Origin: Chloroflexota bacterium
Lineage (GTDB): Bacteria > Chloroflexota > Anaerolineae > B4-G1 > SLSP01
Direction: 5' to 3'
Assembly (NCBI GenBank): GCA_029555965.1
Contig: JAKQHY010000129.1
Location: 1,375 to 65,374 of the forward strand
DNA: 64,000 nucleotides
Shown here: positions 61 to 48,831 of the stretch, piece by piece
Layout: each line of letters begins with the position of its first letter
Numbering within the stretch: the stretch's first letter is position 1
Made by a program: the position numbers and the translations under genes
The notes under the pieces: generated by a model
Seen by the model: only the letters and a program-made list of their open reading frames with translations
Told to the model about the DNA's origin: nothing
Database searches by the model: none

Positions 61-2043
61 TCACTGGCCTCCCTCTATAGGAGCTGCGCCCTCCGACGCC
101 GCTCCGTTTTCGTGATCATCCACCGTCTGGTCGGCGGCGCTCCCCGACAATTGCTCCGCGCTCCCCAGCCGCACAAAGGTAGGACGGCCCAACACATTGC
201 CCACCTCGCGCAGCAAGGTGCTCAAGACGGTTTCCGGGTCGCTGGAGCTGCGCACGCGGGCCGTTACCTCGCGCAAAACCCGCTCGCGGGCCGCCCGGCG
301 CTGGGTGTCCTGATACAAGCGCGCGCGGTCTATTGTGGCGTTCAATTGTTCGGTCAACGCATTTAACAACGTCGTTTCCTGCGCCGTCCACGCCCCGCCA
401 TCGGAGGGTTTGCGTCCCTCCACGACTCCAATGATCTGGCCGCCCACCCGGATGGGAATAGCCAGGCGGGTTCCCTCACTTTCATCCACCATCGGCATAG
501 CGGCAGATACAGCCTTAACCATCTCCGGCAACCATACATCCGCCGCCGGGAAAACACCTTGCGAGGTACTGCGATAGGCCAGGTCCGGTCGCGCAGCCAG
601 CAATTTCTGCCAGGCCTCCGATTCCAATTCGCCGCGCAACCGGCGCTCTGCTTCTGCGCTTTCTTGCGTTTGCCGGAACAGGGTCGCATTGCTGATCGCC
701 ACCGCAACCTGATCCGCGAGCGACTGTAAGATAGCCACGTCTTCGGTTTTGAAGGCTTCTGACACGCGGCTCTGCACGTCCAGGGCGCCAATGAGGCGCG
801 TCTGCAACCGCAACGGGAATACCACCTGGGAGCGAGTTTCCGGCAGGTCAGGGTTATCGAACTGGACAGCGTTCACGCCCACATCGCGGAACACGCGATA
901 CTCCCCTTGTGCGAGCACTTGCGCCACACGTTCCGGCGCATTCAACCGCACGCGATAGCCGCGCGCCCGCTGCTGCCGCCCGCCCTCACTCGATACGGCG
1001 CGCAACTCAAGCCACTCGCGCTCAATATCTACCAGAAACAGTCCCACATGGTAAAAATCAAACTCCTCCGCAATTGAAGTCACTACATGGTCCAAGAGTA
1101 TTTCAATATCCAGAACCGCGGCCGCCTCACGCGCCACCCGCGAGGTAGTTTCCAGATAGCGCGCGCGCCGTTCCAGGCTCTCCGTGCGTTCCAGCACCTG
1201 CTGCTCCAGGGTTTGCACCAACGTCTGCGCCCGGGTGGTCATCGTAGACAACGCCCGGCTGAGGTCGCCGATTTCGTCCCGGCGAGACAGAGGTTTCACG
1301 GCCCCCCATTCGCCTTGAATCACCCGCTCGGCGTTGCGCGCCATCATCTGAAGGGGGCGCGTCAGCCAGAAGCCCAGGACCACCGCCAGTCCCACACTGC
1401 CCACACCCGTCACCAGAGCCACGGTCAGGAAGCGTTGGCGGGTAAGCCGGGCCACTGAGGAGAGTTCGTCACGCAATTGTTGGGTCGGCTGGGTGAATTC
1501 GTCCATGTAGGTCGTTGCCACAGCGATCAAGGGTGTATCTTCAATCGGCAACAGCACGGCGTACTTAGCGCGCACAGTGCCATCCAATTCAATCCAATCA
1601 TAGTACCCCTCAGAGCTAGCCCCACCCAGGGCGCCCGAAAAGACGGCCCAAAATTCCGGCAACTTGTCCGCCAAAAGGGATAAATCCTCCCCTGCCCTCT
1701 GAGGGTTGACATGAAGGCGAGTATATCCCTGGTTGTCAATCAGGCCGGTATAACCAGTTTTGCCCACGGGCTGCACCGCGATACTGGCTAATTCCGTATT
1801 GCGCTGTAAGGCATCCATATCAAAAGGGTCTACCTCCGGGTGCCGCCCCAGGTACGCCTGTACCTGCTGTTTGATGGTCAGTGCCTCATCGTAAATGACG
1901 GATTTGCCAATCTCTTCCAGCGCCGCCGCGCCACTGGCGACTGCCAGAGTCTCCATAAAGCGGGTCGTCCAAAAGGAGGCTATCAGGAGTGGCAGCATCC
2001 CGACCAACGCAATGATCACGATCAAACGCACGCGAATGCTCAT
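61..2043 (-). CDS. Membrane sensor: TM-Cache-like-TM-HAMP-S-helix-GAF-split-GAF module, no catalytic domain (array member 1)
   Basis: Two hydrophobic segments; HAMP (RPLQMMARNAERVIQG...DEIGDLSRAL); LEQQVLERT S-helix; GAF (FYHVGLFL...NPDLPETRSQVVFPL...GALDVQS); tail RAARERVLREVTARVRSSSDPETVL. ATG overlaps the upstream TAG. Confidence 0.9.
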   Translation of the reverse strand: MSIRVRLIVIIALVGMLPLLIASFWTTRFMETLAVASGAAALEEIGKSVIYDEALTIKQQVQAYLGRHPEVDPFDMDALQRNTELASIAVQPVGKTGYTGLIDNQGYTRLHVNPQRAGEDLSLLADKLPEFWAVFSGALGGASSEGYYDWIELDGTVRAKYAVLLPIEDTPLIAVATTYMDEFTQPTQQLRDELSSVARLTRQRFLTVALVTGVGSVGLAVVLGFWLTRPLQMMARNAERVIQGEWGAVKPLSRRDEIGDLSRALSTMTTRAQTLVQTLEQQVLERTESLERRARYLETTSRVAREAAAVLDIEILLDHVVTSIAEEFDFYHVGLFLVDIEREWLELRAVSSEGGRQQRARGYRVRLNAPERVAQVLAQGEYRVFRDVGVNAVQFDNPDLPETRSQVVFPLRLQTRLIGALDVQSRVSEAFKTEDVAILQSLADQVAVAISNATLFRQTQESAEAERRLRGELESEAWQKLLAARPDLAYRSTSQGVFPAADVWLPEMVKAVSAAMPMVDESEGTRLAIPIRVGGQIIGVVEGRKPSDGGAWTAQETTLLNALTEQLNATIDRARLYQDTQRRAARERVLREVTARVRSSSDPETVLSTLLREVGNVLGRPTFVRLGSAEQLSGSAADQTVDDHENGAASEGAAPIEGGQ

Positions 2044-4283
2044 AGCCCCTCGCCTTCCTGGATAGCTTTCGAAGTTGGCGCCGCCGCACTGACGCGCTGC
2101 GCGACCATTTCTGGGGTAGCCAGACGCACGACCAATTCCTCAAGGTTGAGGACGCGCCGCATTTCTGCGGCGGCCACCTGTAACACGCCGGTCAATTCGA
2201 CCGGCTCGCGCAGGCGCCCGGTGGTTTCCGCAATGGTGCGCTCGCGCGCTGCATTCAGTTGCGTTTCTTCATACAGGCGCGCCCTTTCCAAAGCCTGCGC
2301 CAGTTGACCAGAAATAGCCTCCAACAAGGCGATCTGATCCGGCGCCCACTGCGACGTGCCTTCCGGGAGGTCGGCGCTCAGCACGGCAATCGTCTGATCG
2401 CGCACCCGAATCGGCACGGTCAAGGATGGCGTTATGCCTTCCTCAGTTTTTTCAATAACCGTCTGTTCGAGCTGAACGGCGCGCCGCATCTCCGGCGCCC
2501 ACACATCCTCTATCGGTCGCAGAAGTGCGCCTTCTTTGACAAAACCGAGAACCGATTGGCTACGCAAAAATGCCAACCAGGCTTCCCGGCTCGCATCGCC
2601 ATACGCCCGGCGCTCGGCCTCTAACGCCTGCTGGGTCTGTCCGAAAAGGTGCGCGGTGTGAATCGCCATAGCGACTTGATCGGCCAGGGTTTGCAAGACT
2701 TCCACATCCTCGTCACTGAATGCCTCCGCGAGCACACTCTGCACATCCAACACACCGATGACCGCATCATGCACGCGCAGCGGTAGGGCCATTTCCGAAC
2801 GGGTTTGCGGTAAATCAGGATTATTGAAAAAATGGCGATCCGCGCCGACATCCAGCGCAATCTGCGACTGGCCCAGTTCGGCAACATAGCCCACGAGACC
2901 CTGCTCGCCAACGCGCAAGCGGTGGCCGCGCGCCAACATACGCTGCCCGCCCTCACTCGAGGCCGCGCGTAACACAGCCCATTCTCCTGGAGAATCCAAC
3001 AAAAAGATGCCAGCGTGGTAGAAGTCGAATTTCTCGCTGATCAGGCGCACAACCCGCGACAACAATTGTTCCACGTCCAACTCCGAGGCCGCGTCGCGGG
3101 CAACCGCTGCGGTCGCCTCCAAATAGCGCGCCCGACGATCCAACTCTTGCGCGCGTTCACCCGCGCGCACAAACGCCTCGCGCAGGTTCGCCGTCATCTG
3201 GTTGAAAGCGTGCGCCAACTCCCCCAACTCGTTCTGGCTGGACTCTGGCACGACGCGCTCAAAATCACCGGAAGCCACAGCGATAGCAGCTTTCGTCATT
3301 ATCTCTACCGGATGCATAATGCGTGACATCTGCCAGGCGAAGCCCCAGCCCCCTATGACCAGAGTGGCGACCGTTAGCAGCAGATTGAACGCCAAACGCA
3401 GCAAGGGTTCGCGAATCAATGCCGTGCGGTCGAAGACAATATCTGCAATGCCGATGATCTGACCAGAATAATCCGTCAACGGCGTGCTCAACACGGTATA
3501 GCTGCGACCAGCAACACGCTGATGCCACAGGACCGGCATACCGCCCAGCACGCGCTGATAACGCTCTTCGTCTGCAAAGAAAGGGTTTTCCAGCGTACTA
3601 TCCTGCAAAATCAAATCCTGAGTTGGGCGCATCACACTAACTGACTGATCTTCAAAGCGCGCAATTTCTGCAATCTCCCGTCGCAAGATAATCTGCCAAT
3701 CACCACCAGTTCGGGACTGGATATCGGCCAACCATTTCGCGCCCATATCCAGACCAAATTCGACGGAGCCAATAGGATAGCCCCGATAAAACATCGGCAC
3801 TACCCCGCGGAGTCCCAAACCGGTGCGCCCAATTTCCAAGCCGCTCACCGGACGCCGATTGGTATTGGCCGCCACCACCGTATGACGAAAACTTGAGAGG
3901 TCGTCGCCATATTGTGTAGGTTGATTCACTCGCAGAAAGGAAGTCGCCGGCGCCAGGTGAAATTGGAATTGGGACACGTCGAAAGCGGTATGGAGGTTCA
4001 CATAGGAGACCTGTAACAATTCCAGCAGTTGTTGACGGTCGCGCGCGGCAAACAATTCCTGAACCCGTGGGTTGTAGGCCACTTCGGTCGCCAAAGCCAA
4101 AACCACCGTCCGGCGCGATTCCAAACTATCCTGCATCCCGCGTTCAAAGCGCTCCAGCGCCTGGCGCTCCTGGTCAGACAGGGTACGCAAGCTGGTGAAG
4201 ATATCAATCAGCGTCAACAGCAACAGCAGCACGCCCAACCACGTCAGGATGCTTCTCAGCAATTTTCGCGTAATGGTCATCAT
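2040..4283 (-). CDS. Membrane sensor with dCache_3-like domain, HAMP, GAF, split-GAF module (member 2)
   Basis: SFLRVNQPTQYGDDLSSFRHTVV...GLEIGRTGLGLRGVVP resembles dCache_3 domains of chemoreceptors. HAMP, GAF and tail are present; GGAGG SD. Confidence 0.9.
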   Translation of the reverse strand: MMTITRKLLRSILTWLGVLLLLLTLIDIFTSLRTLSDQERQALERFERGMQDSLESRRTVVLALATEVAYNPRVQELFAARDRQQLLELLQVSYVNLHTAFDVSQFQFHLAPATSFLRVNQPTQYGDDLSSFRHTVVAANTNRRPVSGLEIGRTGLGLRGVVPMFYRGYPIGSVEFGLDMGAKWLADIQSRTGGDWQIILRREIAEIARFEDQSVSVMRPTQDLILQDSTLENPFFADEERYQRVLGGMPVLWHQRVAGRSYTVLSTPLTDYSGQIIGIADIVFDRTALIREPLLRLAFNLLLTVATLVIGGWGFAWQMSRIMHPVEIMTKAAIAVASGDFERVVPESSQNELGELAHAFNQMTANLREAFVRAGERAQELDRRARYLEATAAVARDAASELDVEQLLSRVVRLISEKFDFYHAGIFLLDSPGEWAVLRAASSEGGQRMLARGHRLRVGEQGLVGYVAELGQSQIALDVGADRHFFNNPDLPQTRSEMALPLRVHDAVIGVLDVQSVLAEAFSDEDVEVLQTLADQVAMAIHTAHLFGQTQQALEAERRAYGDASREAWLAFLRSQSVLGFVKEGALLRPIEDVWAPEMRRAVQLEQTVIEKTEEGITPSLTVPIRVRDQTIAVLSADLPEGTSQWAPDQIALLEAISGQLAQALERARLYEETQLNAARERTIAETTGRLREPVELTGVLQVAAAEMRRVLNLEELVVRLATPEMVAQRVSAAAPTSKAIQEGEGL

Positions 4284-4325
4284 CGCTTCCTCCGGCCTCG
4301 GCCCGGTGATTGCCCGCGCCGCACG

Positions 4326-6515
4326 TTAGCCGCGACCACGCTGCGCCCCGGCAGCCTCTTCATCACTAAGCGCGGCATCCGCCGCCACCATACGGATCAG
4401 GACCCGCTGCAATCCTAGCGCCTGCTGGATTTCCGTTACTGCCGTTTTGAGAACATTTTCCATATCCAATTCCTCGCGCACGCGCCCGGCGATTTGACCG
4501 AGCAGGCGCTCGCGGGCGGCCGCCCGCTGCGTTTCATCAATCAAGCGTTGGTTCTCCGCCGCCAACAGCAATTGTTCCGAGAGCGATTCGATCAAAGCGA
4601 CATCCTCATTGCCCCATCCCGGCTTGTCGAAGGGCTGTTCAAACCCCAAGACTCCAACAATCTGGTCCCCCTGTGCCACGGGGATAACCAACCGGTCTTT
4701 TTGCACCACGGCCTGCTGGTATTGCAACACAGGCTGCGCCTCCGGCACCAGCGACTCCGTGAGGGGTGTCAAACCGGTCGGGCCATATTCATAACCGCGC
4801 ACCGGCCGCGTCTGAATGTATTGTCCCCAAGCCTCGCCCTGATAGCGGCGTTGCGCTGCGTACAGGCGATCCAACGTTGATTGGACCTCGGCAAAGAGGC
4901 GCGCATTCTGCACGGCCACCGCCACCTGATCGGCCATATTCTGCAAGAGCGCAATGTAGGTGCTGTCAAAGGCAGACTCTACCACGCTCTGCACCGTCAT
5001 GGCGCCAATGACCACCGTTCCATAACGCAGCGGCAACGCCAGTTCCGAACGAGTATCTGGCAGGTAAGGATTCTCCAAACGTCCCACACCGTCGCCTTCT
5101 GTCTGACGCACACCGACTTCGCCATTAGCGACACATTGCCCAATCATCGAGTCTCCACCAACCGCCAAACGCCAGCCCTCCGCCATCATCTGCCGTCCGG
5201 CGTCTCCGGTTCCGGCGCTCAAAAGAGCATATTCCCGCGCCTCATCCACCAAGAACAAACCCACATAATACAGGTCAAAGCGATCCCGCACCAAATTCAC
5301 CACTTGCGGCAGCAACTGCGTGAGGTTGAGCAGTGAGGTGGTCGCGCGCGACACTTCAGCCACCGTCTCCAACCCTCGCGTGCGTTCCTCCACGCGCTGT
5401 TCCAAACTACTAATGAGTTCGCGCAGTTGCCGGGTCATTTGATTAAAGGCCAGCGCCAATTGCCCCAATTCATCGGTGCGGCTGCTCTGGACGTTCAAGT
5501 GATAGTCGCCGGCGGCAACTCGCGTGGTGGTCATAACCAATTCCTCTAAAGGCTGTGAAAGGGTGCGCGCAAAGATCAATGCCCCGCCGCCGGCCAACGC
5601 AATCGCCACAACAGCCACGGCAATATTGATGAGTCCGGTAGCCTGCGCACCGCGCAGCACCTCTGCCTGATCCATTTCAGCGATGAGCGCCACCTGCAAC
5701 GCCGGCAGCCACCGGTAGACGCCAAACGCCATAGCCCCACTATAGTTCTGGTAGACGGCCATACCGCTTTGTTGTATAGACACGACATGATCGATCCCCT
5801 CGCTATGAACATAGGTGTTGGGGGTAGCATGTAGCGCCTGGGTTAAGAGTAGATAACGGGGCGTCACCAAGTAGGTTTCGCCAAATTCGCCCAGAATATC
5901 CCGGCGCGCCAGGATATCATTTAACTGGGTCAAGTTTGCCCGACCCACCAACACGCCCACCAGATTATCCAGTTGATCAAAAGCCGGCCGGGCGACAAAT
6001 ACAGCCAGGCGGCCCTGGGTTACGTCATAGTAGGGAGGCTGCACATAAAAACCCTCTTGCCCATACGCGAAATAACGCTCATGGCCAAGGAACTTACGTT
6101 CTTGCACGCGGTCAGTGGAAACGACTACCTCTCCATCCAAATTAAGGACAAATACCTCATCGAAACGTTGTGTGCGCGCCACCATTTTCTGGAAATTCCC
6201 CCGCAGGTAGTCCTGGGCATATTGGGGATTCAACAAGGCGCTCTGGGAGGTCGCCGCCGCCACGCTGTCCAATTCATACGTCGAAGTCAACAGCGTATCC
6301 AGGTCCATCTGCAAGCCATACAACCATGACTCAATGGCGAGGGTTTGCAGATCGGCCACTGAGGTTAGCCGATCAAACGCTTGCTGGCGCGCGTAACGAA
6401 AATTAACCCACACGGAGACACTCGAAGTCACCGACACGGCAAAGAGCGTGATAAACGTAAATGCCATCAATAATTGTGTGCGAAGGGTAACTTTGCGTTT
6501 TTTAGACATGCTCAT
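4326..6515 (-). CDS. Membrane sensor with dCache_1, HAMP, GAF, split-GAF module (member 3)
   Basis: ERYFAYG...QPPYYD...VGVLVGR dCache pattern; HAMP DELGQLALAFNQM; LEQRVEERT; GAF YYVGLFL...AGTG; tail. Confidence 0.9.
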   Translation of the reverse strand: MSMSKKRKVTLRTQLLMAFTFITLFAVSVTSSVSVWVNFRYARQQAFDRLTSVADLQTLAIESWLYGLQMDLDTLLTSTYELDSVAAATSQSALLNPQYAQDYLRGNFQKMVARTQRFDEVFVLNLDGEVVVSTDRVQERKFLGHERYFAYGQEGFYVQPPYYDVTQGRLAVFVARPAFDQLDNLVGVLVGRANLTQLNDILARRDILGEFGETYLVTPRYLLLTQALHATPNTYVHSEGIDHVVSIQQSGMAVYQNYSGAMAFGVYRWLPALQVALIAEMDQAEVLRGAQATGLINIAVAVVAIALAGGGALIFARTLSQPLEELVMTTTRVAAGDYHLNVQSSRTDELGQLALAFNQMTRQLRELISSLEQRVEERTRGLETVAEVSRATTSLLNLTQLLPQVVNLVRDRFDLYYVGLFLVDEAREYALLSAGTGDAGRQMMAEGWRLAVGGDSMIGQCVANGEVGVRQTEGDGVGRLENPYLPDTRSELALPLRYGTVVIGAMTVQSVVESAFDSTYIALLQNMADQVAVAVQNARLFAEVQSTLDRLYAAQRRYQGEAWGQYIQTRPVRGYEYGPTGLTPLTESLVPEAQPVLQYQQAVVQKDRLVIPVAQGDQIVGVLGFEQPFDKPGWGNEDVALIESLSEQLLLAAENQRLIDETQRAAARERLLGQIAGRVREELDMENVLKTAVTEIQQALGLQRVLIRMVAADAALSDEEAAGAQRGRG

Positions 6516-6597
6516 CGTCGTTTTCCCAAATAGCCTGGATGGTGCAGCCCCCCGACGCGATAGACGCCGCTGGGGACAGTCCTCGAATGGCTCAAAC

Positions 6598-7566
6598 TCA
6601 TTGCGTATAAATAAAGTGATTCGTATACAGCGATTCCAACGTCACTGAAGAAGTCAACCAACCTTGAGAACGCAGGGCTTCCTGTGTGCTATGCCAGACA
6701 TTGTCTGCCATCATCCCGGGCAAGGTATCCCCGACATCTATGTACGGGATGGTGGCCGCCCAGGAAGCCTGCTGCAAGGCGGTATCCAATGTGGCATCAT
6801 GCGCCAGGGTCAGTTGAACCGCTTCTTCAGGATGCTCAACGGCATAGCGATAGCCTCGTAACGTTGCCCGCACCATCGCTTCTACCAATGCCGGTTGTTC
6901 GGCAATCAAAGCCGCGCGCGTCACCAGTACGTTCGGATACGCCAGGGCGCCGTAGTCGCTCATGTAGATCAGATTGACGTCCTGACCGGTTTGCCGGACC
7001 GCGACCGCTTCGCGGGTAGCCCAGGCGTAGGCCAGCGCGTCCACCTCGCCGGACAGCAAGGCGTCAATCCCCCCAGCGGTTGGCGTCAAAGTCACTTGTT
7101 GCCCACTCAACGCAGTGCGCGTCAACACCACACTCAGCAGGATGTCCGCCTCGGTATGCAAGTCCGCCGACTGCACCCCAATCTGCGTGCGCGGCAAATA
7201 GATAGGGCGAGTCAACCGGGCCGCAGCCAGGGACATGATCGCCTGGGGATTGCGCCGCATAATGGCAGCGACCGCCATCAAGGGTTGGCGCTGACTGCGC
7301 GCCTGCACCAGCCGGATACCCGAACTTACGGCAAAATCCGTCGTTCCTTCAGCAACGCCGGCCAAAGGGGCGTCCTCCCGCACCAGCAACGAAACATCCA
7401 GTCCCTCCGCTGCATAGTATCCCTGCGTCTGCGCCGCATAAAACCCACTCCATAGCACCGAATGAGCCGCATCCAACTGCACCACAACTTTTTGACGCGG
7501 CGGCGGGGGCGTGGTGCATGACAGCAAGCTCACCACCAACAACAGCAACACTGTATTCCTAAACAT
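6598..7566 (-). CDS. NMT1/THI5 (SsuA-like) family substrate-binding lipoprotein
   Basis: Start re-assigned to ATG 7566 (MFRNTVLLLLVVSLLSC, lipobox LLSC). Motifs GFYAAQTQGYYAAEGLDV and EALVEAMVRATLRGYRYAVEHPEEA are typical of the family. Confidence 0.8.
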   Translation of the reverse strand: MFRNTVLLLLVVSLLSCTTPPPPRQKVVVQLDAAHSVLWSGFYAAQTQGYYAAEGLDVSLLVREDAPLAGVAEGTTDFAVSSGIRLVQARSQRQPLMAVAAIMRRNPQAIMSLAAARLTRPIYLPRTQIGVQSADLHTEADILLSVVLTRTALSGQQVTLTPTAGGIDALLSGEVDALAYAWATREAVAVRQTGQDVNLIYMSDYGALAYPNVLVTRAALIAEQPALVEAMVRATLRGYRYAVEHPEEAVQLTLAHDATLDTALQQASWAATIPYIDVGDTLPGMMADNVWHSTQEALRSQGWLTSSVTLESLYTNHFIYTQ

Positions 7567-13284: not shown

Positions 13285-13293
13285 ACGCAACCT

Positions 13294-13944: not shown

Positions 13945-13954
13945 TGTTTATGCC

Positions 13955-14305: not shown

Positions 14306-14326
14306 TGTTCCTCCAAGCTCCCTTTC

Positions 14327-14899: not shown

Positions 14900-14940
14900 C
14901 TTCTCATCTCCCAATTGCCAGAATTGACTCAACTCAAACT

Positions 14941-20572: not shown

Positions 20573-20590
20573 AGGCTCATCCCATACGAA

Positions 20591-25153: not shown

Positions 25154-25154
25154 C

Positions 25155-28998: not shown

Positions 28999-29001
28999 CC
29001 C

Positions 29002-30738: not shown

Positions 30739-30748
30739 GTCAATTCCC

Positions 30749-32464: not shown

Positions 32465-32488
32465 ACTGCTGCTCCTAAAAATCAGGGA

Positions 32489-34840: not shown

Positions 34841-34845
34841 CTCTA

Positions 34846-37659: not shown

Positions 37660-37691
37660 AGGTTTGCCTCATCCTGTACTCCATTTTTTTG

Positions 37692-38921: not shown

Positions 38922-41146
38922 GGCTGGGCCTGCCTTTCGCTTTTGGTGGCCGGCAGCTCCACCGCAGTGGAGGCCCAGGAGGAAGGGCCACTCAGGTGAA
39001 TCTTACCGGTCGCGTGCAGCAGCCGCCCCAGCTCACGGATGGTGGTTTGCAAAACCACATCTATATCTGTGGCCGCGCCCCGAATCCGCGCGGCCAGGTC
39101 GCCGGTCAACCGCTCGCGGGCTACGCGCTCCCGTGACTCATCCAACAGCCGCACATTGTCCAATGCCAGTCCCACCTGATCGCATGTCGCTTCTACCAGG
39201 GCCAGGTCTGCCTCAGACCAGGGGGGCGCATCGGCAGATTGCTGCAACACCAACGAACCCAAAATGTGATCTCGCATCCGAATAGGCGCCACCAGGCGGC
39301 GCTGATCCCCCTCGGTTAGCACGGTGACGCGCTCCTGCGGCGTGACCGTGAATTTTTGCAGCGTGCGCCCCGACGCGGTTTCCACGCGCACACCGGTATA
39401 ATGATAAGCGGCCAGCTCCCGAGAAAGCCGCGCCTGCCAGGCAGTGTGAATCTGCTCGCCATACCGTCGCTCCAATTCCCGCACGGCGAACTCACTCTCC
39501 CGCAGCAATCGCGCATTCTGAATCGCCAGCGCCACCTGTTCGGCCATTGTCTGTAAGACGACCACATCCTCATTCGTAAAGGCCGCAGCCTGTTCCGATT
39601 GCACGTCCAACACCCCAATGACCCGGCTGCGCGCCGTCAGCGGCAGCGCCATTTCGGAGCGCGTCGCCGGAATGTCTGGGTTAGCCACAAACGCGCCGTC
39701 AGCATCTACATCCAGAGCGATGCGGGGCTGGCCGGTGCGCGCCACCGCGCCGACAATACCCTGGCCGAGTTTAAGCCGGTGCCCCCGCGCCAACATCCGC
39801 CGGCCGCCCTCTGAAGAAACGGCCCGCAAAACAGCATATTCTTCGGCCTCGTCCAACAAAAAGATACCGACGTGAGCGACTTCCAGGTGCCTCGGAATCA
39901 ATCGCGCCGTTTCATCCAGCAATTGATCGACATCGTAGATGGCCGAGACGGCGCTGGCGACACGCGCCGCCGCTTCGAGCTGGCGCGAGCGTTTTTCAAG
40001 GGCCTGGGTGCGCACTTGCACTTGCCGCTCCAGTTCAGCATACGAGGTCCGCAATTGCGTGGTCATTTGATTGAAGGTCTGCGCAAATATGCCCAACTCA
40101 TCCTGCGTGACCACCGGAACCTGCCGATCCAACCGCCCCTGCGTAACCTCGTGGGCCACCTCGGTCAAAACGCGCAAGGGGCGCACCCCCTGCCGCATCA
40201 GGAAAAAGGCGCCCACCAAGAACAGCACGGACACCGCCGTCCCGGCCACCAACACGTTCATCGCCAAACTCCGCGCCGGCGTTAAAATCGCATACTCTTC
40301 GTCCACCTCGGCCAGCAAACCCAGATCATGTTCATCAATCCAGTGATAAACGCCCACCACGGAACGCCCCTCATAATTCGGGTAGACCGCCTGACCGTCC
40401 TGCTGCGCCGTGACCGCGCGCACTCCGACAGTCGGGGTCTCCAGGTCCGCCCCGGCCGCCAGCAGCGCTCGCGGCGCCATAATGAAGTCGCCATCGCCAT
40501 CCACCAGGAAGGCCTCGCTGCGAGCGCCCAGGCCAGGGCTTTCCAGGATGATTTGCTGCATCCGCTCCAAATTCAAGTGCGCCGCCAACACCCCGATACG
40601 TTCCCCCGCAGGGTCGAACAGGGGAGTGGCGACAGTGATCGTCGGATCGCCATCCTCTAGGAGGTAAATATTCTGCACATAGATGCGCAAGCGACCTTGA
40701 ATGAAATATTCGGCCTCGGCATAGGACTGTCCTTCACGCGCCGGGTTGGTGGAGATCAGCACCTGGCCGTCCGGCTCGGCAAGCACGAAAATTTCCCGAA
40801 ATCCGGCGCGCTGCGTGACTGCCGTTCGCAAATAAGCCCTAAATGCGGGATAAATAGCCTCCCGCGCCGTTTCCCCCTGAAGCAGTTGCGTGGCCCACTG
40901 GCGCACCGGAACCTGCCCGGCCATCCATGTGATATTCTGCCGTTGATCCGTCACCCAACGTTGCAATTCATCTTCCTTCAGTGTCACCACCGATTCCAGG
41001 CGATTGAAGACCGAGGTAGTGAGGTTACGTTGCGCCAAAGTGTAGGCCAAATATCCCATCAAGCTGATGGTCAACAATAGCAACAGCATGACATAAACGA
41101 GGACCCGGTTGACCAGGCTTTTCGTGACGAAGGACCAGAACCTCAT
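38918..41146 (-). CDS. Sensor with dCache_1, HAMP, GAF, split-GAF module (member 17)
   Basis: AEYFIQG dCache; HAMP QDELGIFAQTFNQM; GAF; tail. ATGA overlap. Confidence 0.9.
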   Translation of the reverse strand: MRFWSFVTKSLVNRVLVYVMLLLLLTISLMGYLAYTLAQRNLTTSVFNRLESVVTLKEDELQRWVTDQRQNITWMAGQVPVRQWATQLLQGETAREAIYPAFRAYLRTAVTQRAGFREIFVLAEPDGQVLISTNPAREGQSYAEAEYFIQGRLRIYVQNIYLLEDGDPTITVATPLFDPAGERIGVLAAHLNLERMQQIILESPGLGARSEAFLVDGDGDFIMAPRALLAAGADLETPTVGVRAVTAQQDGQAVYPNYEGRSVVGVYHWIDEHDLGLLAEVDEEYAILTPARSLAMNVLVAGTAVSVLFLVGAFFLMRQGVRPLRVLTEVAHEVTQGRLDRQVPVVTQDELGIFAQTFNQMTTQLRTSYAELERQVQVRTQALEKRSRQLEAAARVASAVSAIYDVDQLLDETARLIPRHLEVAHVGIFLLDEAEEYAVLRAVSSEGGRRMLARGHRLKLGQGIVGAVARTGQPRIALDVDADGAFVANPDIPATRSEMALPLTARSRVIGVLDVQSEQAAAFTNEDVVVLQTMAEQVALAIQNARLLRESEFAVRELERRYGEQIHTAWQARLSRELAAYHYTGVRVETASGRTLQKFTVTPQERVTVLTEGDQRRLVAPIRMRDHILGSLVLQQSADAPPWSEADLALVEATCDQVGLALDNVRLLDESRERVARERLTGDLAARIRGAATDIDVVLQTTIRELGRLLHATGKIHLSGPSSWASTAVELPATKSERQAQP

Positions 41147-42984
41147 ACGTTATCCTCCACATCGGCAGGCGGGTGTAAAGGTTGCGTGCGTCGAATCTGG
41201 CGACTCTCCCCCAATCCCAGACGGATCAGACCATCGGAGGCGCGCAGTGACCGCCCCAACTCGCGGATAGCCGTCTGCAAAATCGTGTCCACATCCGTGT
41301 GCCGGCGAATCTGCGCCGTGATGTCGGTCACGCGCCGCTCGCGCGCCGCTCGCTGCGTCATCTCTTCTATCAGGTGAATGCTCTGCAACACCAGTGCGGC
41401 CTGATCGGCCAGACTACGGTACACCCGCCGTTCCCGCTCGGTGAAATGGTAGGGAGTGCGTTGCGCGGCAGCCAGCAGCCACCCCCACAACTGCCCCCCG
41501 GCCACCAGCGGCACCAGGATGAACGCGCGAAGGCGCAGGATTTCTTGGTACACCTGCCGCGAGGTTTCGTCCAGATGCGGGGCGACAGCAATATCGTCCA
41601 CCGCCAAAACCGTAGTCGTCGTCTGCGCCATCGCCGGGATTTTCGCCACCTCCCAGCGGTCCCCCAGCAAAGGAGACCGGGCCTTGCCCGCATCCCAGGC
41701 GGCTCCCAGGCGCACCAAAGCGCCTGGCCCTGCCGTGCCCGGCTCGATCAAAGCCAACGCGCACCGGTCAATCTCCGGCGCGATCAAATAATCCACAAAT
41801 GCCCGCAGCACTTGTTCTTCTGAGCGCGCCACCCCCAGCGCCTGGCTGCACCGATACAAGACGCCGACTTCCTCCAGCGCCGTCTGCATCTTGCTGAACA
41901 GGCGGGCGCTTTCCATCGCGCGTCCGGCTTCATCCACCACGGCCCGCGCCAGGTCCAGATCGTCAGAGTTCAGCGCGTCGGCATCCGCGAAAATTTTCAA
42001 CTCGCCCATCGCCTCACGCCCCCCCCGGAGCGCCAACACCCATGAGGGAGGGCGGTCGCCAAGGTCCAGTTCGGCGGCGGCTTTCACTTCGATGCCATCA
42101 TATCCGTATCCCCATTGCTGCCGCTCCTGCGTCAAACGGCCCCACTCCTCCTCCCCCTGGGTGCGGAGCAAACGGTTGATCTCGTTGATTTGGGCCTCGG
42201 TCGTGGCCTGGATATGCGCGGTGCGCCAAATCAGGCTCAATTCATCGGCCAGCATTTGCAACAGGGCACATTGCTCTGGAACAAAAGCGCCGGCCCCTTC
42301 CGAGTGGACATCCAAGACCCCAATCACATCGCCCTGCGCGCGCAAAGGGAAGAGCGCTTCAGCGCGGGTTTGCGGGAACGGGAAATCTTCAGGCGCAAAT
42401 AGCGGAAGAGAAGCCATGAGGCACTGCCCCTGCGCCAGCACTGCGCTAAAATCCGCAGATTCTGCCAACGTCACCTTGTAGCCTTCCTCCAATAGATGCC
42501 GCCCCACCGTCGAGGAGGCCGCGCGCAACAAAGCCGTCTGCCGCGACTCATCCAACAGAAACAATCCCACGTGATAGAACCCCAATTGTTCGGATAGATG
42601 GCGAACCGTTGCGTTCAGCCACTCTTCTGCGGTGAGCGCCGTTGCGATTTGCTGCGAAACCCGCGCCGCAGCCTCCACCCGCGCAGTTTGCCGTTCCACC
42701 CCTGCGGCTTGCGCCGCGACCTGTTCCTCCAGGGTCGCCAACCGGGTTTGCCAATGGGTGGACAATGCCGCCAATGCCCGCGCCAACGCGCCCACTTCAT
42801 CCGAACGTTTTTCGGCGGGAAGCGCCCGCCACTCGCCCGCCGCAAGGCGCGCAGCAGCAGCGGTCAAAGCGCGCAGCGCACGCCGCTCATTGCGCACCTG
42901 GACCAGAGTGACGCCGAAGGCCACCCCGACGACGCCCAGCGCCAACACACCGACGATCAGTAAGAGATTCAACTCTCCTAACAT
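41143..42984 (-). CDS. TM-HAMP-GAF-short core-full GAF-tail protein (member 18)
   Basis: Start re-assigned to ATG 42984 (GGAGG SD). HAMP SDEVGALARAL; an extra complete GAF lies before the tail. Confidence 0.85.
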   Translation of the reverse strand: MLGELNLLLIVGVLALGVVGVAFGVTLVQVRNERRALRALTAAAARLAAGEWRALPAEKRSDEVGALARALAALSTHWQTRLATLEEQVAAQAAGVERQTARVEAAARVSQQIATALTAEEWLNATVRHLSEQLGFYHVGLFLLDESRQTALLRAASSTVGRHLLEEGYKVTLAESADFSAVLAQGQCLMASLPLFAPEDFPFPQTRAEALFPLRAQGDVIGVLDVHSEGAGAFVPEQCALLQMLADELSLIWRTAHIQATTEAQINEINRLLRTQGEEEWGRLTQERQQWGYGYDGIEVKAAAELDLGDRPPSWVLALRGGREAMGELKIFADADALNSDDLDLARAVVDEAGRAMESARLFSKMQTALEEVGVLYRCSQALGVARSEEQVLRAFVDYLIAPEIDRCALALIEPGTAGPGALVRLGAAWDAGKARSPLLGDRWEVAKIPAMAQTTTTVLAVDDIAVAPHLDETSRQVYQEILRLRAFILVPLVAGGQLWGWLLAAAQRTPYHFTERERRVYRSLADQAALVLQSIHLIEEMTQRAARERRVTDITAQIRRHTDVDTILQTAIRELGRSLRASDGLIRLGLGESRQIRRTQPLHPPADVEDNV

Positions 42985-43009
42985 CTCCACCTCCGGCGCC
43001 GCCCGCAGA

Positions 43010-45235
43010 TCATGCGCGTGAAACCTCGCCGGCGCCACTGACCTCAATGGTCGTCAATTCGGCTTGCAACAGGCGGCCCAGGGCCTGCACCGTTGTCTTC
43101 ATAATCACGTCCGGGTCCAAAGTCGCACGCAATTGCCCACCGATCTCCCCCACCAGACGGTCACGCGCGGCGCGGTCGCGGGTCTCTTCCAACAAACGCG
43201 CCACCTCCAAAGCCTGGGCGATCCCTTGCGCAGCCTGCTGCACAAATTGCATTTCCTGCGAAGTCCAGGGGTGCGTCGCTGGACGATTCAAACGCAGAGC
43301 GCCAAAAGTTCGCCCGCCCAGCATCCGCAACGGCGACACTAATGTGTTGGCGGCAGTGATATGCGTGGACTCCACAGTGTCGGACGGCATCTCGGTGAGA
43401 TAGGGGATCGGGCGGGTTTCTTCGGGCGTATAACGGTAGCCCAGCAACGCCGAAGCGCGCGCGCGCCATCCCTGTTCTCCCGTTTCCCCATACGCCCGCT
43501 GCAATTCTTGCAACGCCCGCTGACTATCCTGAAATAGTTGCGCATTCTGAATCGCGATGGCGATTTGATCGGCCAGCACCCGCAACGTTTCCACATCTTC
43601 CGTGGAAAAAGCGTTCGGCGCTTCGCTTTGAATATCCAGAACACCCAGCAGACGGTTGCCCACGCTCAGCGGCAGGGCCATTTCCGATCGGGTGGTCGGC
43701 AAATCAAGGCTTTTCATCCACACCGCATCCACATCTACATCCAACGCGATGCGCGGACGCCCGGTGCCCGAAACATACCCCACAATGCCCTGTTCCCCCA
43801 CCCGCAAGCGATGTCCACGCGCTAACATATTCCGCCCCCCTTCGGAAGATGCGGCGCGCAAAACGGCCCATTCCCGGCTTTCGTCCAACATAAAAATGGC
43901 AATGTGATAAAAACCAAACCGGTCGGTGATCAAATGCGCGACGCGCGGCAGCAACTCTTCCACATCCAGGATGGCATTGGCAACTCGGCTGACCTGTCCG
44001 GTGACTGCCAGATATGTGGCGCGCTGTTCCAACTCGCGGGTGCGTTCCGCCACCCGCGACTCCAAGGAGTGAATCAATTCCCGAAGTTGCGTCGTCATAC
44101 TGTTAAAGGCCCGTCCGAGCATACTCAACTCGTCCGGGCCTTCTGCGATCACGGCGCGGCTGAGATCGCCTGCGGCGATGGCATTGACTGTTTCTGTCAT
44201 GCTCGCAATAGGACGAAAAGCCTGACGCAGCGTCAAGAAAAACGCCAGGGCCAACATGGCCACGCCAACCCACCCCACCAACCACGCAGACTGCATAAAG
44301 GAACGCATTCCAGATAGCAGTTCTGCTTCCTGCTGCTGCACCACAATCCCCCAGCCGGGGCCGCCCTCGCGAACCACCGCCCACCAACGGGCATCATCCG
44401 TCGCAAATTTTACCCATGGGCCGCGCCCGGCGCGCAAGGCCTCTACGGGGGCCGTAGTACTCATATCGGTCAACGGTGTTGTAGCGTGCAGGTCCGGGTG
44501 CGCCAGCAGGCGATTTTCGCTGTCCACAATATAAGTGTAGCCAGTATTGCCGACTTGACGAGTCCGCACCTGAGCGGCCACATCGGACAAAGCGCAGGCA
44601 AACATCCCGACGCCCACCAAGTTTCCCTCCCTATCACGGATAGGCATGGCGCCGATCAACGCCGGAGCATTGATTGCAGGATCCAGGGCAACCTGAAAAA
44701 CCTGGGGGGCGCCATCCAGCACCGCCTGAAACCAATCCTGAGCGGCGTAGTGTTCCGGTGGGAGCGCGTCGCTGCGGGTCACATTCATTCCGGTCAGGTC
44801 TAACGTACTCACCAAGTACATGGTGGGGTGAGTCTCCGCCATCATTTCCAGAAGGGCGCGCTGCTGCGCCGGATCCATACTAACAATGGCCGGATCGGAC
44901 ACCAATCGGCTCAAGACGCCTGCGTGAAGGTCAACCCACACCTCGGCATTGGAAAGCAATGCAGCGTTCAAAACTTCCAGGCGCTGGGATTCCTGCTTCT
45001 CCACCACACGCACCGCCGAGACTGTCACCCAGACCACCCCACCCGTTAGAATCGGCGCAGTGATCGCCAATAGCAAGAAGGTCAGGCGCGTGCGCAACAG
45101 CCAGCGTTGCCGCCCGGTGCTGGCGGGATGTCGCAGATTCAATAGCACGAGATAGGCCAGCAGCACTGCTTCCAGGAAAAACGACGTCCAGGCGAACCAT
45201 TGCAATATCTGGCTAAAGGATGGTGTCAGGGTCAT
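43010..45235 (-). CDS. Sensor with dCache_1, HAMP, GAF, split-GAF module (member 19)
   Basis: Start ATG 45235 (ATGA overlap, GGAGG SD); QDWF dCache; HAMP PDELSMLGRAFNSM; GAF; tail. Confidence 0.9.
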   Translation of the reverse strand: MTLTPSFSQILQWFAWTSFFLEAVLLAYLVLLNLRHPASTGRQRWLLRTRLTFLLLAITAPILTGGVVWVTVSAVRVVEKQESQRLEVLNAALLSNAEVWVDLHAGVLSRLVSDPAIVSMDPAQQRALLEMMAETHPTMYLVSTLDLTGMNVTRSDALPPEHYAAQDWFQAVLDGAPQVFQVALDPAINAPALIGAMPIRDREGNLVGVGMFACALSDVAAQVRTRQVGNTGYTYIVDSENRLLAHPDLHATTPLTDMSTTAPVEALRAGRGPWVKFATDDARWWAVVREGGPGWGIVVQQQEAELLSGMRSFMQSAWLVGWVGVAMLALAFFLTLRQAFRPIASMTETVNAIAAGDLSRAVIAEGPDELSMLGRAFNSMTTQLRELIHSLESRVAERTRELEQRATYLAVTGQVSRVANAILDVEELLPRVAHLITDRFGFYHIAIFMLDESREWAVLRAASSEGGRNMLARGHRLRVGEQGIVGYVSGTGRPRIALDVDVDAVWMKSLDLPTTRSEMALPLSVGNRLLGVLDIQSEAPNAFSTEDVETLRVLADQIAIAIQNAQLFQDSQRALQELQRAYGETGEQGWRARASALLGYRYTPEETRPIPYLTEMPSDTVESTHITAANTLVSPLRMLGGRTFGALRLNRPATHPWTSQEMQFVQQAAQGIAQALEVARLLEETRDRAARDRLVGEIGGQLRATLDPDVIMKTTVQALGRLLQAELTTIEVSGAGEVSRA

Positions 45236-46908
45236 TGCGCCTCCCACTGCACCGGTGTCAGATAAATCTGCACTTCATGGGCATCCAACACCCGCCCCAG
45301 TTCTTGGACACTGCTTTCCATAATGGCTGCCGTGCTCGGGTTGCGCCACACAACATCATCCAGACGCCCCAACTGCTCCTGGTAGAACGCTTGACGCCGG
45401 GTCTGCACCAGCAGGCGTGTATTGTCCAACGCGAGCGCCAACCGTTCAGCAGCCGCCTCGATAAAAACGCGCGTCTCGGCATCCCAGTCGCCCTGTTCCA
45501 CCGAGCGGGTAAAAGCCAGATAGCCCAACGGGACATCCCGCGCAATCAAAGGGACCACCAGCAGGTAATCATCCGTTCCCTCAACGGGGGGGCATGAGCG
45601 TATTGCGCGATCTCGTAACGCCTCAGCCGCTAAAGTCTGGACCGCAGCTTCCGGCAACGCGCCGGCGGTATAAGACAGCTTTAACTTTGCCTCCAATAAC
45701 GAGCGCCACCCGGCCGTTGTGTATTGGCTGTACAACGTTCGCATCTCCTGAAGCTGGCCGTTGATCTCTTCCAGCGCGGCTAGCATATCCAGAGAGGCGG
45801 TTACATAGCCGGCAACGACCCGGAAAAGTTGCATATCACTGTCGGAGAAGGTGGCTTCGGTGCTGTGAATATCCAAAACACCGAGCAACTCACCGCGCAC
45901 CACCAGGGGCAAGGCCATCTCCACCCGGCTCAATGGAAACTCCTCAGCCTCATCTGGAGAGAGCACCCGCACCTGTTCGCGCCCGGTTTGCGCCACTTGT
46001 CCTAGCAGTGAGCGCTCGCCAACCCACACAGAAAATCCCTCCGCGACCAGCGCCTCCCCCTGCGCCCCAGCGGCGGCGGCCAGAATCAAGGTTGAACCGG
46101 TGCGGTCGGTCAAGAAGACATTGACTTGATACAAGTCGAGGCTGCGTTCCATATCTCGCACCGTGCGCCACGCCACCATTTCTCGCCGCCGCAGGGAGGC
46201 CAGCGCATTGCCAAATTCGGCCACCCACTGCATCCGCACCGCGTGCAAGTAGGCGTACTCAGCATTTTGCTCGGCTTGCATCCGTTGTGTATCTAACTTA
46301 TTCGCCAGGTCGTGGCTCTTGATCAGCACTTCCCGGAAACGGGATACCAGTTGATTCAAAGAGGTGATCACGAAGGCGCTGACAAACAATAACGTCAAGG
46401 TGTAGCTAAACCAGGCCATAGGTTTATGGGACAAGACCTGAACACTGACCGGTATCTTCAAGATCTCCAGCGAGAATAACCCGGCAAACTCGCTCATTGT
46501 CAACATAGAGAGCGCCAACGCGACAAATCCGGCCCGCCGCCCCAGAAATACCACGGCCATCAAAGGTAACATCAGCAAAAACAAGCGCACATTGCTCGAT
46601 AGTCCCCCGCGAAAGACCGATAACAGCGCAAGGCCATAGGCCAGTGCCAATAAAGCGCCGATTCGCACATGGTAGGGGATGCGCCTAGCCACATAGAGGA
46701 TTCCCAAGGCGCAGAACAAAACGACATACGCCAATCCATACATCCAGTTGCCATCGGTCGCAACATAATACCCACCCACAATCAACGCCGGGAATCCTGC
46801 CAGAAAGAGTACGCGCATGACATGGGTCAACAGCGTATGCCGCAACTCCCGGATTTCGGAATCCGCCGCGGCTACTTCCGGCGCGTTCTGCTTCTGTTCG
46901 TCTCTCAA
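45232..46908 (-). CDS. Multi-TM (MASE-like) membrane sensor + divergent GAF + split-GAF module (member 20)
   Basis: TTG start with GGGAGG SD; about 6 TMs; GAF (SRVEMALPL...GVLDIHS); divergent tail. Confidence 0.85.
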   Translation of the reverse strand: MRDEQKQNAPEVAAADSEIRELRHTLLTHVMRVLFLAGFPALIVGGYYVATDGNWMYGLAYVVLFCALGILYVARRIPYHVRIGALLALAYGLALLSVFRGGLSSNVRLFLLMLPLMAVVFLGRRAGFVALALSMLTMSEFAGLFSLEILKIPVSVQVLSHKPMAWFSYTLTLLFVSAFVITSLNQLVSRFREVLIKSHDLANKLDTQRMQAEQNAEYAYLHAVRMQWVAEFGNALASLRRREMVAWRTVRDMERSLDLYQVNVFLTDRTGSTLILAAAAGAQGEALVAEGFSVWVGERSLLGQVAQTGREQVRVLSPDEAEEFPLSRVEMALPLVVRGELLGVLDIHSTEATFSDSDMQLFRVVAGYVTASLDMLAALEEINGQLQEMRTLYSQYTTAGWRSLLEAKLKLSYTAGALPEAAVQTLAAEALRDRAIRSCPPVEGTDDYLLVVPLIARDVPLGYLAFTRSVEQGDWDAETRVFIEAAAERLALALDNTRLLVQTRRQAFYQEQLGRLDDVVWRNPSTAAIMESSVQELGRVLDAHEVQIYLTPVQWEAQ

Positions 46909-46932
46909 CTCTGCCTCCCTAAAAACTCGGTC

Positions 46933-48831
46933 CTAATCCTCCCCCGGCGGCGCCAGGGACACCAGCACACTCTCTGCCTGTACAGCATCCTGGAGCAACT
47001 GCGCGGATTGCGCCACCATCGTTTCCAGATCAGGAATGCGCAACACCTGTTCGCCAAACTCCCGCAGCCAGCGTTCGCGCCCCACGCGGGTCTGCGCCTC
47101 ATGCAACAGCCGGATCCGCTCCAAGGCCACCGTCGCCAGATTCGTGAGCACGCGCTGAAGCTGCCCCTGGAGTGGGGTAAACTGATGCGGGGTGTTGTAG
47201 GTAATCAAAACCACCCCAAGACACTGTGATTCCATCCGCATAGGCGCCAGCGTCAACGCCAAAACGCCCAATTCGGCGGCAAGATTGGATAATAACCGGT
47301 CCACATCCGCGCTGCCAGAATGATAGGGCATACTCAAATCACCGATTACCAGAGAGGATTCTAACATAGCCCCAAAATTAATGAGATCTCCGATGTGGTG
47401 TATGGCCGCTGCCGTGATATATTGTTCATAAAAACTCATGTCGCCGCCGCGCATTTCGGCTACCAGGTATGCTTGTTCTGCCGGGGGCGTGTGCGAATTG
47501 GGTAAACGGCTTTGGCGGAAGATAAACACTCGCGCCGGGTTAAAGTCGCGCAACGCCCCCAACATCGCGGCGTAGATCTCGCGTTCGGTGCGCGTGGTCG
47601 CCAGTTGATGCGCAAGCCGATACAAGGGGCTGGCCGCCTCCAGGACGGCGGCTTCGTCCCCCAAACGCCGCGCATTGTCCACCGCCACCGACAGCAGCCC
47701 GGCCAGGCCCTGAAGGGCATGCACATCATCCTGATCAAAAATAACTTCTTCGCCGCTGTACACATCCAACACCCCAATCAGCCGGCTGCCCACCATCAAC
47801 GGCAAGGCCGCCTCCGAGCGCACTACGGCCAAGTCCACTTCTGTCGCATAGGCCACATTGCGCCGGCCTTTGGTCACAATACACGGCTCTTGATTGGCTA
47901 ACACCATCCCCACCGCATTCAGGTCGCCGACGCGCCAACGTTGTGAGCGCATGGTCATGCGCCGACCGCCTATTGAGGCAGCCGCATGAAGCTGAACCGA
48001 TTGGCCCTCATCGTCTGTCAAAAAAATCGCCGCGCGGTAGAAATCAAAGTGCTGCACAATGAGGTTCACAGCCTGTTCCAACAGAATTTCAGCCTCAAAA
48101 ACCGTTGCTAACGCCTGAGAGACCTGGGTGCTGGCCTCCAAAAACATAGCCCGTCGCTGCAAATTGGTATTGGCCTCCTGAAGCGTCCGCGTCCGTTCGG
48201 CTAAAACAGCTTGCTGTTCTTCCAGGGAAATAGAAAGAGCCGCACTTTTTTGCAATGCAGTAAGCAAACGAGGAACCAGATAATTGAATGAGGCATAGAG
48301 TCCAATCGTCACAGCGACAAAAATAACCAGCCCAACGAGTAAAGAAAAATGAGGATAGGCGGCTGTCGGATAGAGAGGCGGAACAAATACTCCGGTCACA
48401 ATACCCACAACGAACAGTCCCAGAACAACACAAATCCCGATCAACACACCCAGGCCATGACGCCCACCCAGGAAAAGGGTCGCAAACAGCATGGCGCCCA
48501 GCCAGTAGATGCGCACATCCCGCCCCCAACCGTAAGTCAATAAATCCCCTAACCCCAACCCCAGAAGCACTGCTAAAAAAGCCCACACCCGTAGAGGATA
48601 AGGGATCTGCGGAACAAAAGCCCCGATAATAATCACGCTATAGGCGCCCAGGATGACCGGCGTCAGCCAGAGCGCCTGAGTCACATAGACATAATACAAA
48701 GCGAGCAACACCACCGGAAAAGTTGCCGCCGTAATCATCCGCAACGTCCGCGCAAACAAATTGCGCTGCCAAACGCCCATATCCTCTCTGGACATCAGCG
48801 CATCGGCAACCGGCACTTGTTTCTTACTCAC
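46933..48831 (-). CDS. Multi-TM membrane sensor + GAF + second full-length GAF + tail (member 21)
   Basis: Start re-assigned to GTG 48831 (GGAGG SD, overlaps the kinase TAA). About 6 TMs, two GAFs, tail RVGRERWLREFGEQV. Confidence 0.83.
   Translation of the reverse strand: MSKKQVPVADALMSREDMGVWQRNLFARTLRMITAATFPVVLLALYYVYVTQALWLTPVILGAYSVIIIGAFVPQIPYPLRVWAFLAVLLGLGLGDLLTYGWGRDVRIYWLGAMLFATLFLGGRHGLGVLIGICVVLGLFVVGIVTGVFVPPLYPTAAYPHFSLLVGLVIFVAVTIGLYASFNYLVPRLLTALQKSAALSISLEEQQAVLAERTRTLQEANTNLQRRAMFLEASTQVSQALATVFEAEILLEQAVNLIVQHFDFYRAAIFLTDDEGQSVQLHAAASIGGRRMTMRSQRWRVGDLNAVGMVLANQEPCIVTKGRRNVAYATEVDLAVVRSEAALPLMVGSRLIGVLDVYSGEEVIFDQDDVHALQGLAGLLSVAVDNARRLGDEAAVLEAASPLYRLAHQLATTRTEREIYAAMLGALRDFNPARVFIFRQSRLPNSHTPPAEQAYLVAEMRGGDMSFYEQYITAAAIHHIGDLINFGAMLESSLVIGDLSMPYHSGSADVDRLLSNLAAELGVLALTLAPMRMESQCLGVVLITYNTPHQFTPLQGQLQRVLTNLATVALERIRLLHEAQTRVGRERWLREFGEQVLRIPDLETMVAQSAQLLQDAVQAESVLVSLAPPGED

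Follow-up and report, generated by a model that had tools for sequence, protein, structure and literature searches.

The 64,000-nucleotide stretch of Chloroflexota (Anaerolineae) DNA analysed here, called the window below (contig JAKQHY010000129.1, positions 1,375 to 65,374), carries on its minus strand an array of 21 paralogous genes, many of which overlap or sit only a few bases apart. According to Pfam searches of all 21 members, the array proteins are kinase-less and consist of a variable input region, one complete GAF domain and a shared C-terminal module in this order. The inputs are dCache_1, dCache_3, Cache_3-Cache_2, HAMP, PAS (six domains, all in the 1520-aa member 20591..25153), MASE11 and a periplasmic-binding-protein-like domain, and in most cases Cache, HAMP or MASE11 make the member a membrane receptor. 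A domain search found no HisKA, HATPase, GGDEF, EAL, cyclase or similar output domain in any of the 21 members; HisKA and HATPase are confined to a separate gene, 48824..51220. The shared module consists of a hinge, a short GAF-like core and a terminal segment, the tail, after which the proteins stop. It was originally predicted to be a split, circularly permuted GAF completed in trans. The evidence assembled below points instead, with somewhat better than even confidence, to two independent structural units on one long rigid helix, with the tail as a pairing or docking tip.

The tail motif RAxRExL..EI...IR.SLD.E.VLQTAV.EL...L....V.VRL is present in all 21 large open reading frames (ORFs) of the minus strand. 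Every member scores between 52.9 and 90.1 bits with the hidden Markov model (HMM) of the tail and has its stop 0-31 residues downstream of it, in agreement with the claim that all 21 paralogues end in a GAF start and stop about 0-30 residues further on. The array and its tails are located as follows.

61..48924, minus strand: sensor array of 21 paralogous kinase-less genes (ORFs and Pfam)
157..312, minus strand: tail of member 61..2043, 65.9 bits, 31 aa to the stop (tail HMM)
2112..2270, minus strand: tail of member 2040..4283
4383..4538, minus strand: tail of member 4326..6515
7616..7771, minus strand: tail of member 7559..10465
10504..10656, minus strand: tail of member 10462..13290
13294..13944, minus strand: 216-aa stand-alone member (P0001) with an N-terminal coiled coil, a minimal four-strand short core (aa 55-158) and the tail (aa 156-207)
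13324..13479, minus strand: tail of the 216-aa protein, the top score in the genome at 90 bits (tail HMM)
16812..16958, minus strand: tail of member 16758..19058
19109..19267, minus strand: tail of member 19055..20572
20594..20746, minus strand: tail of the 1520-aa PAS-rich member 20591..25153, with the stop right after the strand (0 aa)
25239..25388, minus strand: tail of member 25155..27038
26899..27051, minus strand: tail of member 26869..28998
29041..29199, minus strand: tail of member 29002..30738
30761..30916, minus strand: tail of member 30749..32464 (aa 517-568; 3 residues to the stop; tail HMM)
30908..31270, minus strand: hinge helix and short GAF-like core (aa 399-519 of member 30749..32464), modelled by AlphaFold2 from the deep alignment
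32546..32698, minus strand: tail of member 32489..34840
34873..35028, minus strand: tail of member 34846..37659
37737..37892, minus strand: tail of member 37692..38921
38984..39142, minus strand: tail of member 38918..41146
41215..41367, minus strand: tail of the exception member 41143..43047, whose short core lies at 41893..42192
43034..43189, minus strand: tail of member 43010..45247
45253..45405, minus strand: tail of member 45232..46908
46945..47103, minus strand: tail of the exception member 46933..48924

The order of the parts was read from aligned C-termini (the last ~215 residues), those of all members and of orthologues of the 216-aa protein being included. A full GAF comes first, then the hinge (ERRAYG..REAW), GYxY, W.PEM..A, LAxPI, GxVIGV, W..EE..LL..L..QL..ALExARL and finally the tail, whose consensus in this alignment is RAAREQL..EI...IR.SLD.E.VLQTAV.EL...L....V.VRL. 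This shared order, proposed for the whole family, holds for 19 of the 21 members and breaks down in the two exceptions: 41143..43047 has a complete extra GAF inserted between the short core and the tail, and 46933..48924 goes straight from the full GAF to the tail, no short core being detected.

The assignment of the tail as helix 1, helix 2 and strand 1 of a GAF is borne out by PDB profile search, Pfam and hhalign. In the PDB sequence search, for which a profile of 149 modules was used, profile positions 131-174 of the tail align to residues 11-54 of 8w26 (33 bits, independent E-value 4e-7), and the tail also aligns to 2lb5 (11-54), 8k9o (13-58), 6ozb (9-54) and 3oov (5-45). The matched segments are the N-terminal helix-helix-strand of solved cyanobacteriochrome/phytochrome-class GAFs (residues about 5-58), and module positions 71-167 fall on the junction between GAF and PHY in 8w26. 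The tail shares with the first ~45-50 residues of these five GAFs the motif R..R[DE].L...I...IR.SLdLd.iL....E; there, however, the segment is integral to a complete domain, whereas here it is a C-terminal orphan that co-varies only with itself. When the module profile was compared with a library of 1.8 billion proteins, the best matches were giant multi-GAF proteins with 10-21 matches each, most of which cover profile positions about 90-205, namely the back half of one GAF and the start of the next. As judged from these profiles, the tail is a true GAF start, homologous to helix 1-helix 2-strand 1, and the module, because its library matches span a GAF back half and the following GAF start, is a phase-shifted slice of a tandem-GAF array.

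The short core is recognised as GAF as well. In the 216-aa protein it passes the Pfam cut-offs (given in brackets) of PF01590 with 37.0 bits (22.4), PF13185 with 32.3 bits (28.6) and PF13492 with 31.7 bits (27), and isolated modules reach 28-40 bits on Pfam GAF models; these are not whole-domain matches and cover only Pfam positions about 46-133 or 76-133. Against a 168-column profile of complete GAFs, made from the first GAFs of the family (hhalign, local mode, -M 50), the native core aligns on columns 66-168 with a score of 120 over 103 columns. At the sequence level the core is thus headless, as had been claimed. Moving the tail in front of the core raises the score to 153-163 over 140-161 columns, at template positions 2-168, and extends the Pfam coverage to 1-133 in 4/5 modules, with a gain of just 1.6-4.5 bits. 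The comparison of re-ordered and native sequences that had been proposed as a check is thus positive at the sequence level. By its nature, this result speaks for the homology of the pieces and not for their packing together.

Structure prediction bears on where the tail goes. The AlphaFold2 model of the 216-aa protein (30 sequences; mean predicted local distance difference test, pLDDT, 80.0) has four strands, a second tail helix at 181-196 and no terminal strand, and a single helix at 132-177 spans the last helix of the core and the first helix of the tail. The model of the module of 30749..32464 (149 diverse sequences) reaches pLDDT 88.4, the five models ranging from 85.7 to 88.4, and shows the hinge helix (2-39), a hairpin (45-48/51-54), a helix (61-69), two strands (79-85 and 92-99) and helices at 109-155 and 158-173; its last 14 residues are non-strand by DSSP, though pLDDT is 93 at 171-180. 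In these models the pLDDT of the core/tail junction is about 85-97, and the core is confident without the tail (94-97 in strands 5 and 6). Because the last helix of the core continues unbroken into the first helix of the tail (132-177 and 109-155), the tail is carried off from its own core, as had been claimed. Foldseek searches with both models returned only GAF or PHY domains as top matches with probability 0.96-1.0, the statistics being weak (E 0.02-0.2, best TM 0.47, 90-105 columns).

These models address a circular permutation in cis, in which the tail would fold back and complete its own core within one chain. The full-length GAF match of the re-ordered sequences is what this arrangement would produce, but insertion of the tail in cis is absent from both AlphaFold2 models, the terminal segment having no strand partner. 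The junction helix is continuous and of high confidence in both, and neither Gly nor Pro occurs at the core/tail junction in any of 30 aligned sequences. Together with the lack of covariation between tail and core given next (0/50 and 1/100) and with the whole GAF that separates core and tail in 41143..43047, this makes completion in cis scarcely credible.

Covariation was examined by mean-field direct coupling analysis (DCA) of 668 unique full modules (effective number of sequences, Meff, 590) from the window, the second array contig of the same genome, 195 loci in other genomes and metagenomes, and database proteins, using pairs separated by 5 positions or more. Core-tail combinations account for 43% of the possible pairs, and they take 0/50 of the top 50 places and 1 of the top 100, which otherwise hold 46 core-core and 53 tail-tail pairs. 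The control was the complete first GAF of these proteins (Meff 375); here helix 1-helix 2-strand 1 is coupled to the rest of the domain in 17/50 and 28/100, for example between helix 2 and the last helix (ranks 6 and 22) and between strands 1 and 2 (ranks 17, 32 and 34). Since an integral GAF start gives a clear signal in the control at lower depth, the tail without such a signal to the core tells against completion, and same-chain DCA of the 668 modules gives no sign of a co-evolving donor-acceptor interface (1/100 against 28/100). Three tail-core pairs seen earlier (165E-77R, 170L-109Q and 82G-127A; ranks 33-58 at Meff 317-447) were lost at Meff 590 and are regarded as noise.

Within each part the couplings are strong. 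In the tail they join helix 1 to helix 2 (139-148 and 138-155) and the helices to the strand (153-165, 133-166 and 146-169); because helices and strand couple among themselves, the tail appears to keep a small fold of its own. Couplings of tail positions 159-162 with R140 and L143 misfit a simple hairpin; as they fall on strongly conserved IR.SLD positions, they were not taken for dimer contacts. In the core, the GY strand couples to the last strand (33Y-85L, rank 2 overall; 29L-85L, rank 7) and the hinge to the last helix (W19-R117, rank 38), with 12 of the 100 top core pairs joining the hinge to the rest of the core, so that the core looks closed. No sign of an open strand slot was seen in these couplings or in the models, where the core is confident without the tail. 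On the simplest reading, the hinge helix fills the helix slot, the GY hairpin fills the position of strands 1 and 2, and the region of helix 3 and strand 3 is missing; AlphaFold2 and covariation together suggest that the hinge helix and the tight hairpin hold the N-terminal positions of the core in a closed small domain. The statement that the core starts at about strand 2 is therefore one about profiles only. A side observation concerns the control GAF, in which the pair of columns 87-130 is outstanding (score 7.1, the next being 2.8); it connects the 'GYVAARG' helix to the 'IGALDV' strand and may represent a ligand-pocket switch between subfamilies.

The tail and the short core also occur apart from each other. 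The tail follows complete GAFs in 41143..43047 and 46933..48924, in L155 (393 aa), L114, L055, L063 and L067 from other genomes, and in the database proteins P0264 and P0137. Conversely, the short core without a directly following orphan tail is found in 41143..43047 and in a hybrid kinase of 2381 aa encoded beside the second array of the own genome (C162:34893-42035, minus strand). This kinase ends in two receiver domains and has a GAF plus short-core unit at aa 695-986 (short core 866-986), followed by a complete GAF and no orphan tail.

Truncation at this point is a conserved feature of the family. In the whole genome, 35 C-terminal tails (34-90 bits) were found, all on two contigs, and internal GAF starts reach at most 24 bits on the tail HMM; the second array contig, C162, lies outside the window and has 14 tail-bearing genes. 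The tail profile matches in 203 of 401 sampled Anaerolineae genomes, and when all candidates were scored, a typical genome proved to have a single array with some 10-15 members. The tail-to-stop distance, taken for the 801 tails that have a real stop, has a median of 11 aa and is at most 30 aa in 94%. Mean entropy is lower in the tail than in the core (2.24 and 2.58 bits), so the tail is the better conserved of the two; the GY hairpin and the middle region are most variable (3.2). The relatives, gathered with single-protein and consensus-sequence queries, bear public names no more specific than 'GAF domain-containing protein' and come from Anaerolineae, Thermoflexales or Chloroflexi metagenome-assembled genomes. 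Literature searches on circularly permuted GAF, Chloroflexi GAF domain swapping, MASE11 and Anaerolineae output domains returned nothing on this tail-module family.

Because the truncation point is fixed across the class, the tail is under selection. The members do resemble copies of multi-GAF kinases cut after strand 1 of the next GAF, and the tail might on that ground be taken for an inert, functionless leftover of a truncated kinase gene. Such a leftover would hardly keep its truncation point and sequence in about 800 proteins from half of the sampled genomes, stay below the core in entropy, and show the strong internal covariation of a maintained fold; this explanation is very improbable.

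The reading favoured here is that of two units, not one split GAF. On the simplest reading of covariation and AlphaFold2, unit 1 is a minimised, self-contained GAF-like domain. It would comprise the hinge helix, which substitutes for helices 1 and 2, a tight hairpin at GY, whose first strand adjoins the last strand, an optional helix (W.PEM) plus strand, the strands of LAxPI and GxVIGV, and the last helix. Unit 2, the tail, would be an orphan GAF N-terminal subdomain (helix, helix, strand) that folds by itself and is separated from unit 1 by ~47 helical residues (roughly 70 Å). As to its evolution, the module may have arisen as a tandem-GAF slice cut just after strand 1 of the next GAF, and it resembles the GAF/short core/GAF arrangement of the neighbouring hybrid kinases.

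For membrane receptors of the Cache, HAMP or MASE11 kind, parallel dimers are the expected state, and the two tails of a dimer would therefore lie side by side at the distal tip and not beside the core of the partner chain. Input domains and HAMP would drive the helical spine of GAF, hinge and core in such a dimer, and this would bring the two conserved tails together at the tip. The paired tails, with one unsatisfied strand edge each, may then form a dimerising cap or a docking surface for a shared partner, for which the GAF-containing histidine kinase of the same operon would be the likeliest candidate. In short, the tail is probably the pairing or docking end of kinase-less receptors. The antiparallel dimers or head-to-tail polymers of the original prediction are disfavoured by the same expectation of parallel receptors.

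Several points weigh against the two-unit reading. First, the database protein P0241 (aa 2078-2263) shows the normal GAF order, with a short core directly behind a tail, and then has a second, terminal tail; P0199 (aa 785-~950), with a tail, a short linker and a short core, is a possible second case. The two fit the phase-shift origin, and they show that the normal order is viable though rare. Second, the profile match of the core does not include the first ~45-65 positions of a GAF, and re-ordering raises the score. Third, the closed core is read from covariation, in which one very strong strand pair stands out, and from DSSP and pLDDT rather than from an inspected sheet. Fourth, a contact that exists solely with another protein and involves invariant residues would escape same-chain covariation. 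Fifth, the link to the kinases is one of synteny only.

Some of these points bear directly on completion in trans, in which the tail of another subunit, of the same or a different paralogue, would complete the headless core and build antiparallel dimers or mixed open polymers. Such an exchange would agree with the tail being a GAF start whose re-ordering restores a full-length profile match, with a continuous helix that removes it from its own core, with a terminal strand left unpaired in the monomer models, and with at least one natural protein, P0241, that has the tail directly before the short core. The DCA counts for tail and core nevertheless fall far below the control, and the strand and helix slots of the core appear to be occupied already, by the couplings of the GY strand to the last strand and of the hinge to the last helix. 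The domain contexts fit poorly as well, since the tail is found after GAFs that are complete and the short core where the next helix 1-helix 2-strand 1 belongs to a complete GAF, and parallel membrane receptors would not favour antiparallel or staggered assembly. Completion of the core in trans, the central claim of the original prediction, is on this evidence unlikely.

A partner outside the array is suggested by the gene neighbourhood. Histidine kinases adjoin the arrays on the same strand in many genomes (loci L006, L071, L103, L115, L140, L144, L155, L183 and about 35 others). Those upstream are of the type dCache-HAMP-GAF-HisKA-HATPase, and those downstream are (PAS)-GAF-HisKA-HATPase-REC-REC hybrids. 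Being same-strand neighbours of the arrays in so many genomes, the GAF-containing flanking kinases are obvious candidates for readers of the tail. In the window, such a kinase heads the array.

48824..51220, minus strand: HAMP-GAF-HisKA-HATPase histidine kinase heading the array (domain search)

Its sensor-side layout matches that of the members, with a kinase core in place of the module. One arrangement would have the tail strand augment, or insert into, a GAF-type domain of the operon's histidine kinase, so that many sensors converge on one kinase. The free strand is confidently modelled yet unpaired, the tail is the best-conserved part of the module, GAF-containing kinases flank the arrays in many genomes, and the 2381-aa hybrid kinase has the same GAF plus short-core unit. 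The short core of this kinase, however, has a complete GAF next to it in cis and resembles the apparently closed core of the sensors, and same-chain covariation is mute either way; strand donation to the kinase is rather doubtful as it stands. The wider notion of split-GAF signalling between proteins, in which the tail strand docks onto or inserts into a GAF-type domain of either the hybrid kinase or a sister sensor and tens of kinase-less receptors with varied inputs feed one phosphorelay by way of a GAF fragment that is not catalytic, is likewise a minor possibility.

Among known systems, the tandem GAF-A/GAF-B proteins (PDE2A, PDE5/6 and CyaB2) and the GAF-PHY spine of phytochromes and Cph2 have the same long helix, in which the last helix of one domain runs into helix 1 of the next, and both Foldseek and the PDB profile search match such junctions (8w26 residues 148-243, 4bwi, 3mf0/3lfv and 6oap). 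In the module, by contrast, the second domain stops after strand 1 (about 50 residues) with no enzymatic output following, and the domain before it is a GAF in shortened form, with an N-terminal third that GAF profiles fail to recognise. Donor-strand complementation and 3D domain swapping, as in chaperone-usher pilins, likewise involve a terminal strand that is partnerless in the monomer and a rigid connector, but the module core is without sign of an open groove, with covariation between its first and last strands and none between tail and core. In chemoreceptor families of methyl-accepting chemotaxis proteins (MCPs), many paralogues with varied inputs share one conserved distal tip, which a common kinase reads. 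The arrays resemble them with 10-35 paralogues per genome, Cache/HAMP/PAS inputs, a highly conserved distal end and an adjoining kinase gene. They are, however, without the MCP signalling domain or CheA/CheW, and their tip consists of a fragment of a GAF; the analogy would be a functional one and is speculation.

Hundreds of Anaerolineae receptors thus join ordinary inputs (Cache, PAS, HAMP and MASE11) to an ending without enzymatic output. With this ending read as a closed mini-GAF and a conserved, self-folding GAF fragment on a rigid helix, instead of the two-chain split GAF proposed, the focus narrows to the binding partner of the tip and to whether the neighbouring kinases read it. If the strand docks onto another GAF, this would amount to a new, non-catalytic principle of output in bacterial receptors; if the tip is only a dimer cap, the family would be a kinase-less modulator variant of ordinary GAF kinases.

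Two insertions interrupt the array in the window.

6598..7632, minus strand: NMT1/THI5-like solute-binding protein gene (domain match)
13955..16761, minus strand: cassette of SpoIIE-PP2C (with GAF), DUF6272 and a small STAS-like protein (domain matches)

Genes similar to the NMT1/THI5-like one are found in 14 other array loci. The SpoIIE-PP2C/DUF6272/STAS-like cassette is accompanied by the 216-aa stand-alone module protein, and the two occur together in only two closely related genomes (L001 and L004), being absent from arrays elsewhere. Because of this limitation to two close relatives, the cassette with the 216-aa protein was ruled out as a general partner of the family.

Some further observations concern the reading frames of the array. 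Four adjacent gene pairs are in frame and separated by one stop codon and 3-24 nt (13290-13296, 20572-20593, 32464-32491 and 46908-46935). In the genome search, a frame of 1526 aa, open but for a single internal TGA, was recorded at the end of 20591..25153; read-through is conceivable in these places. As listed, the ORFs 25155..27038 and 26869..28998 share 170 nt (26869-27038), and the true start of the downstream gene is probably further in.

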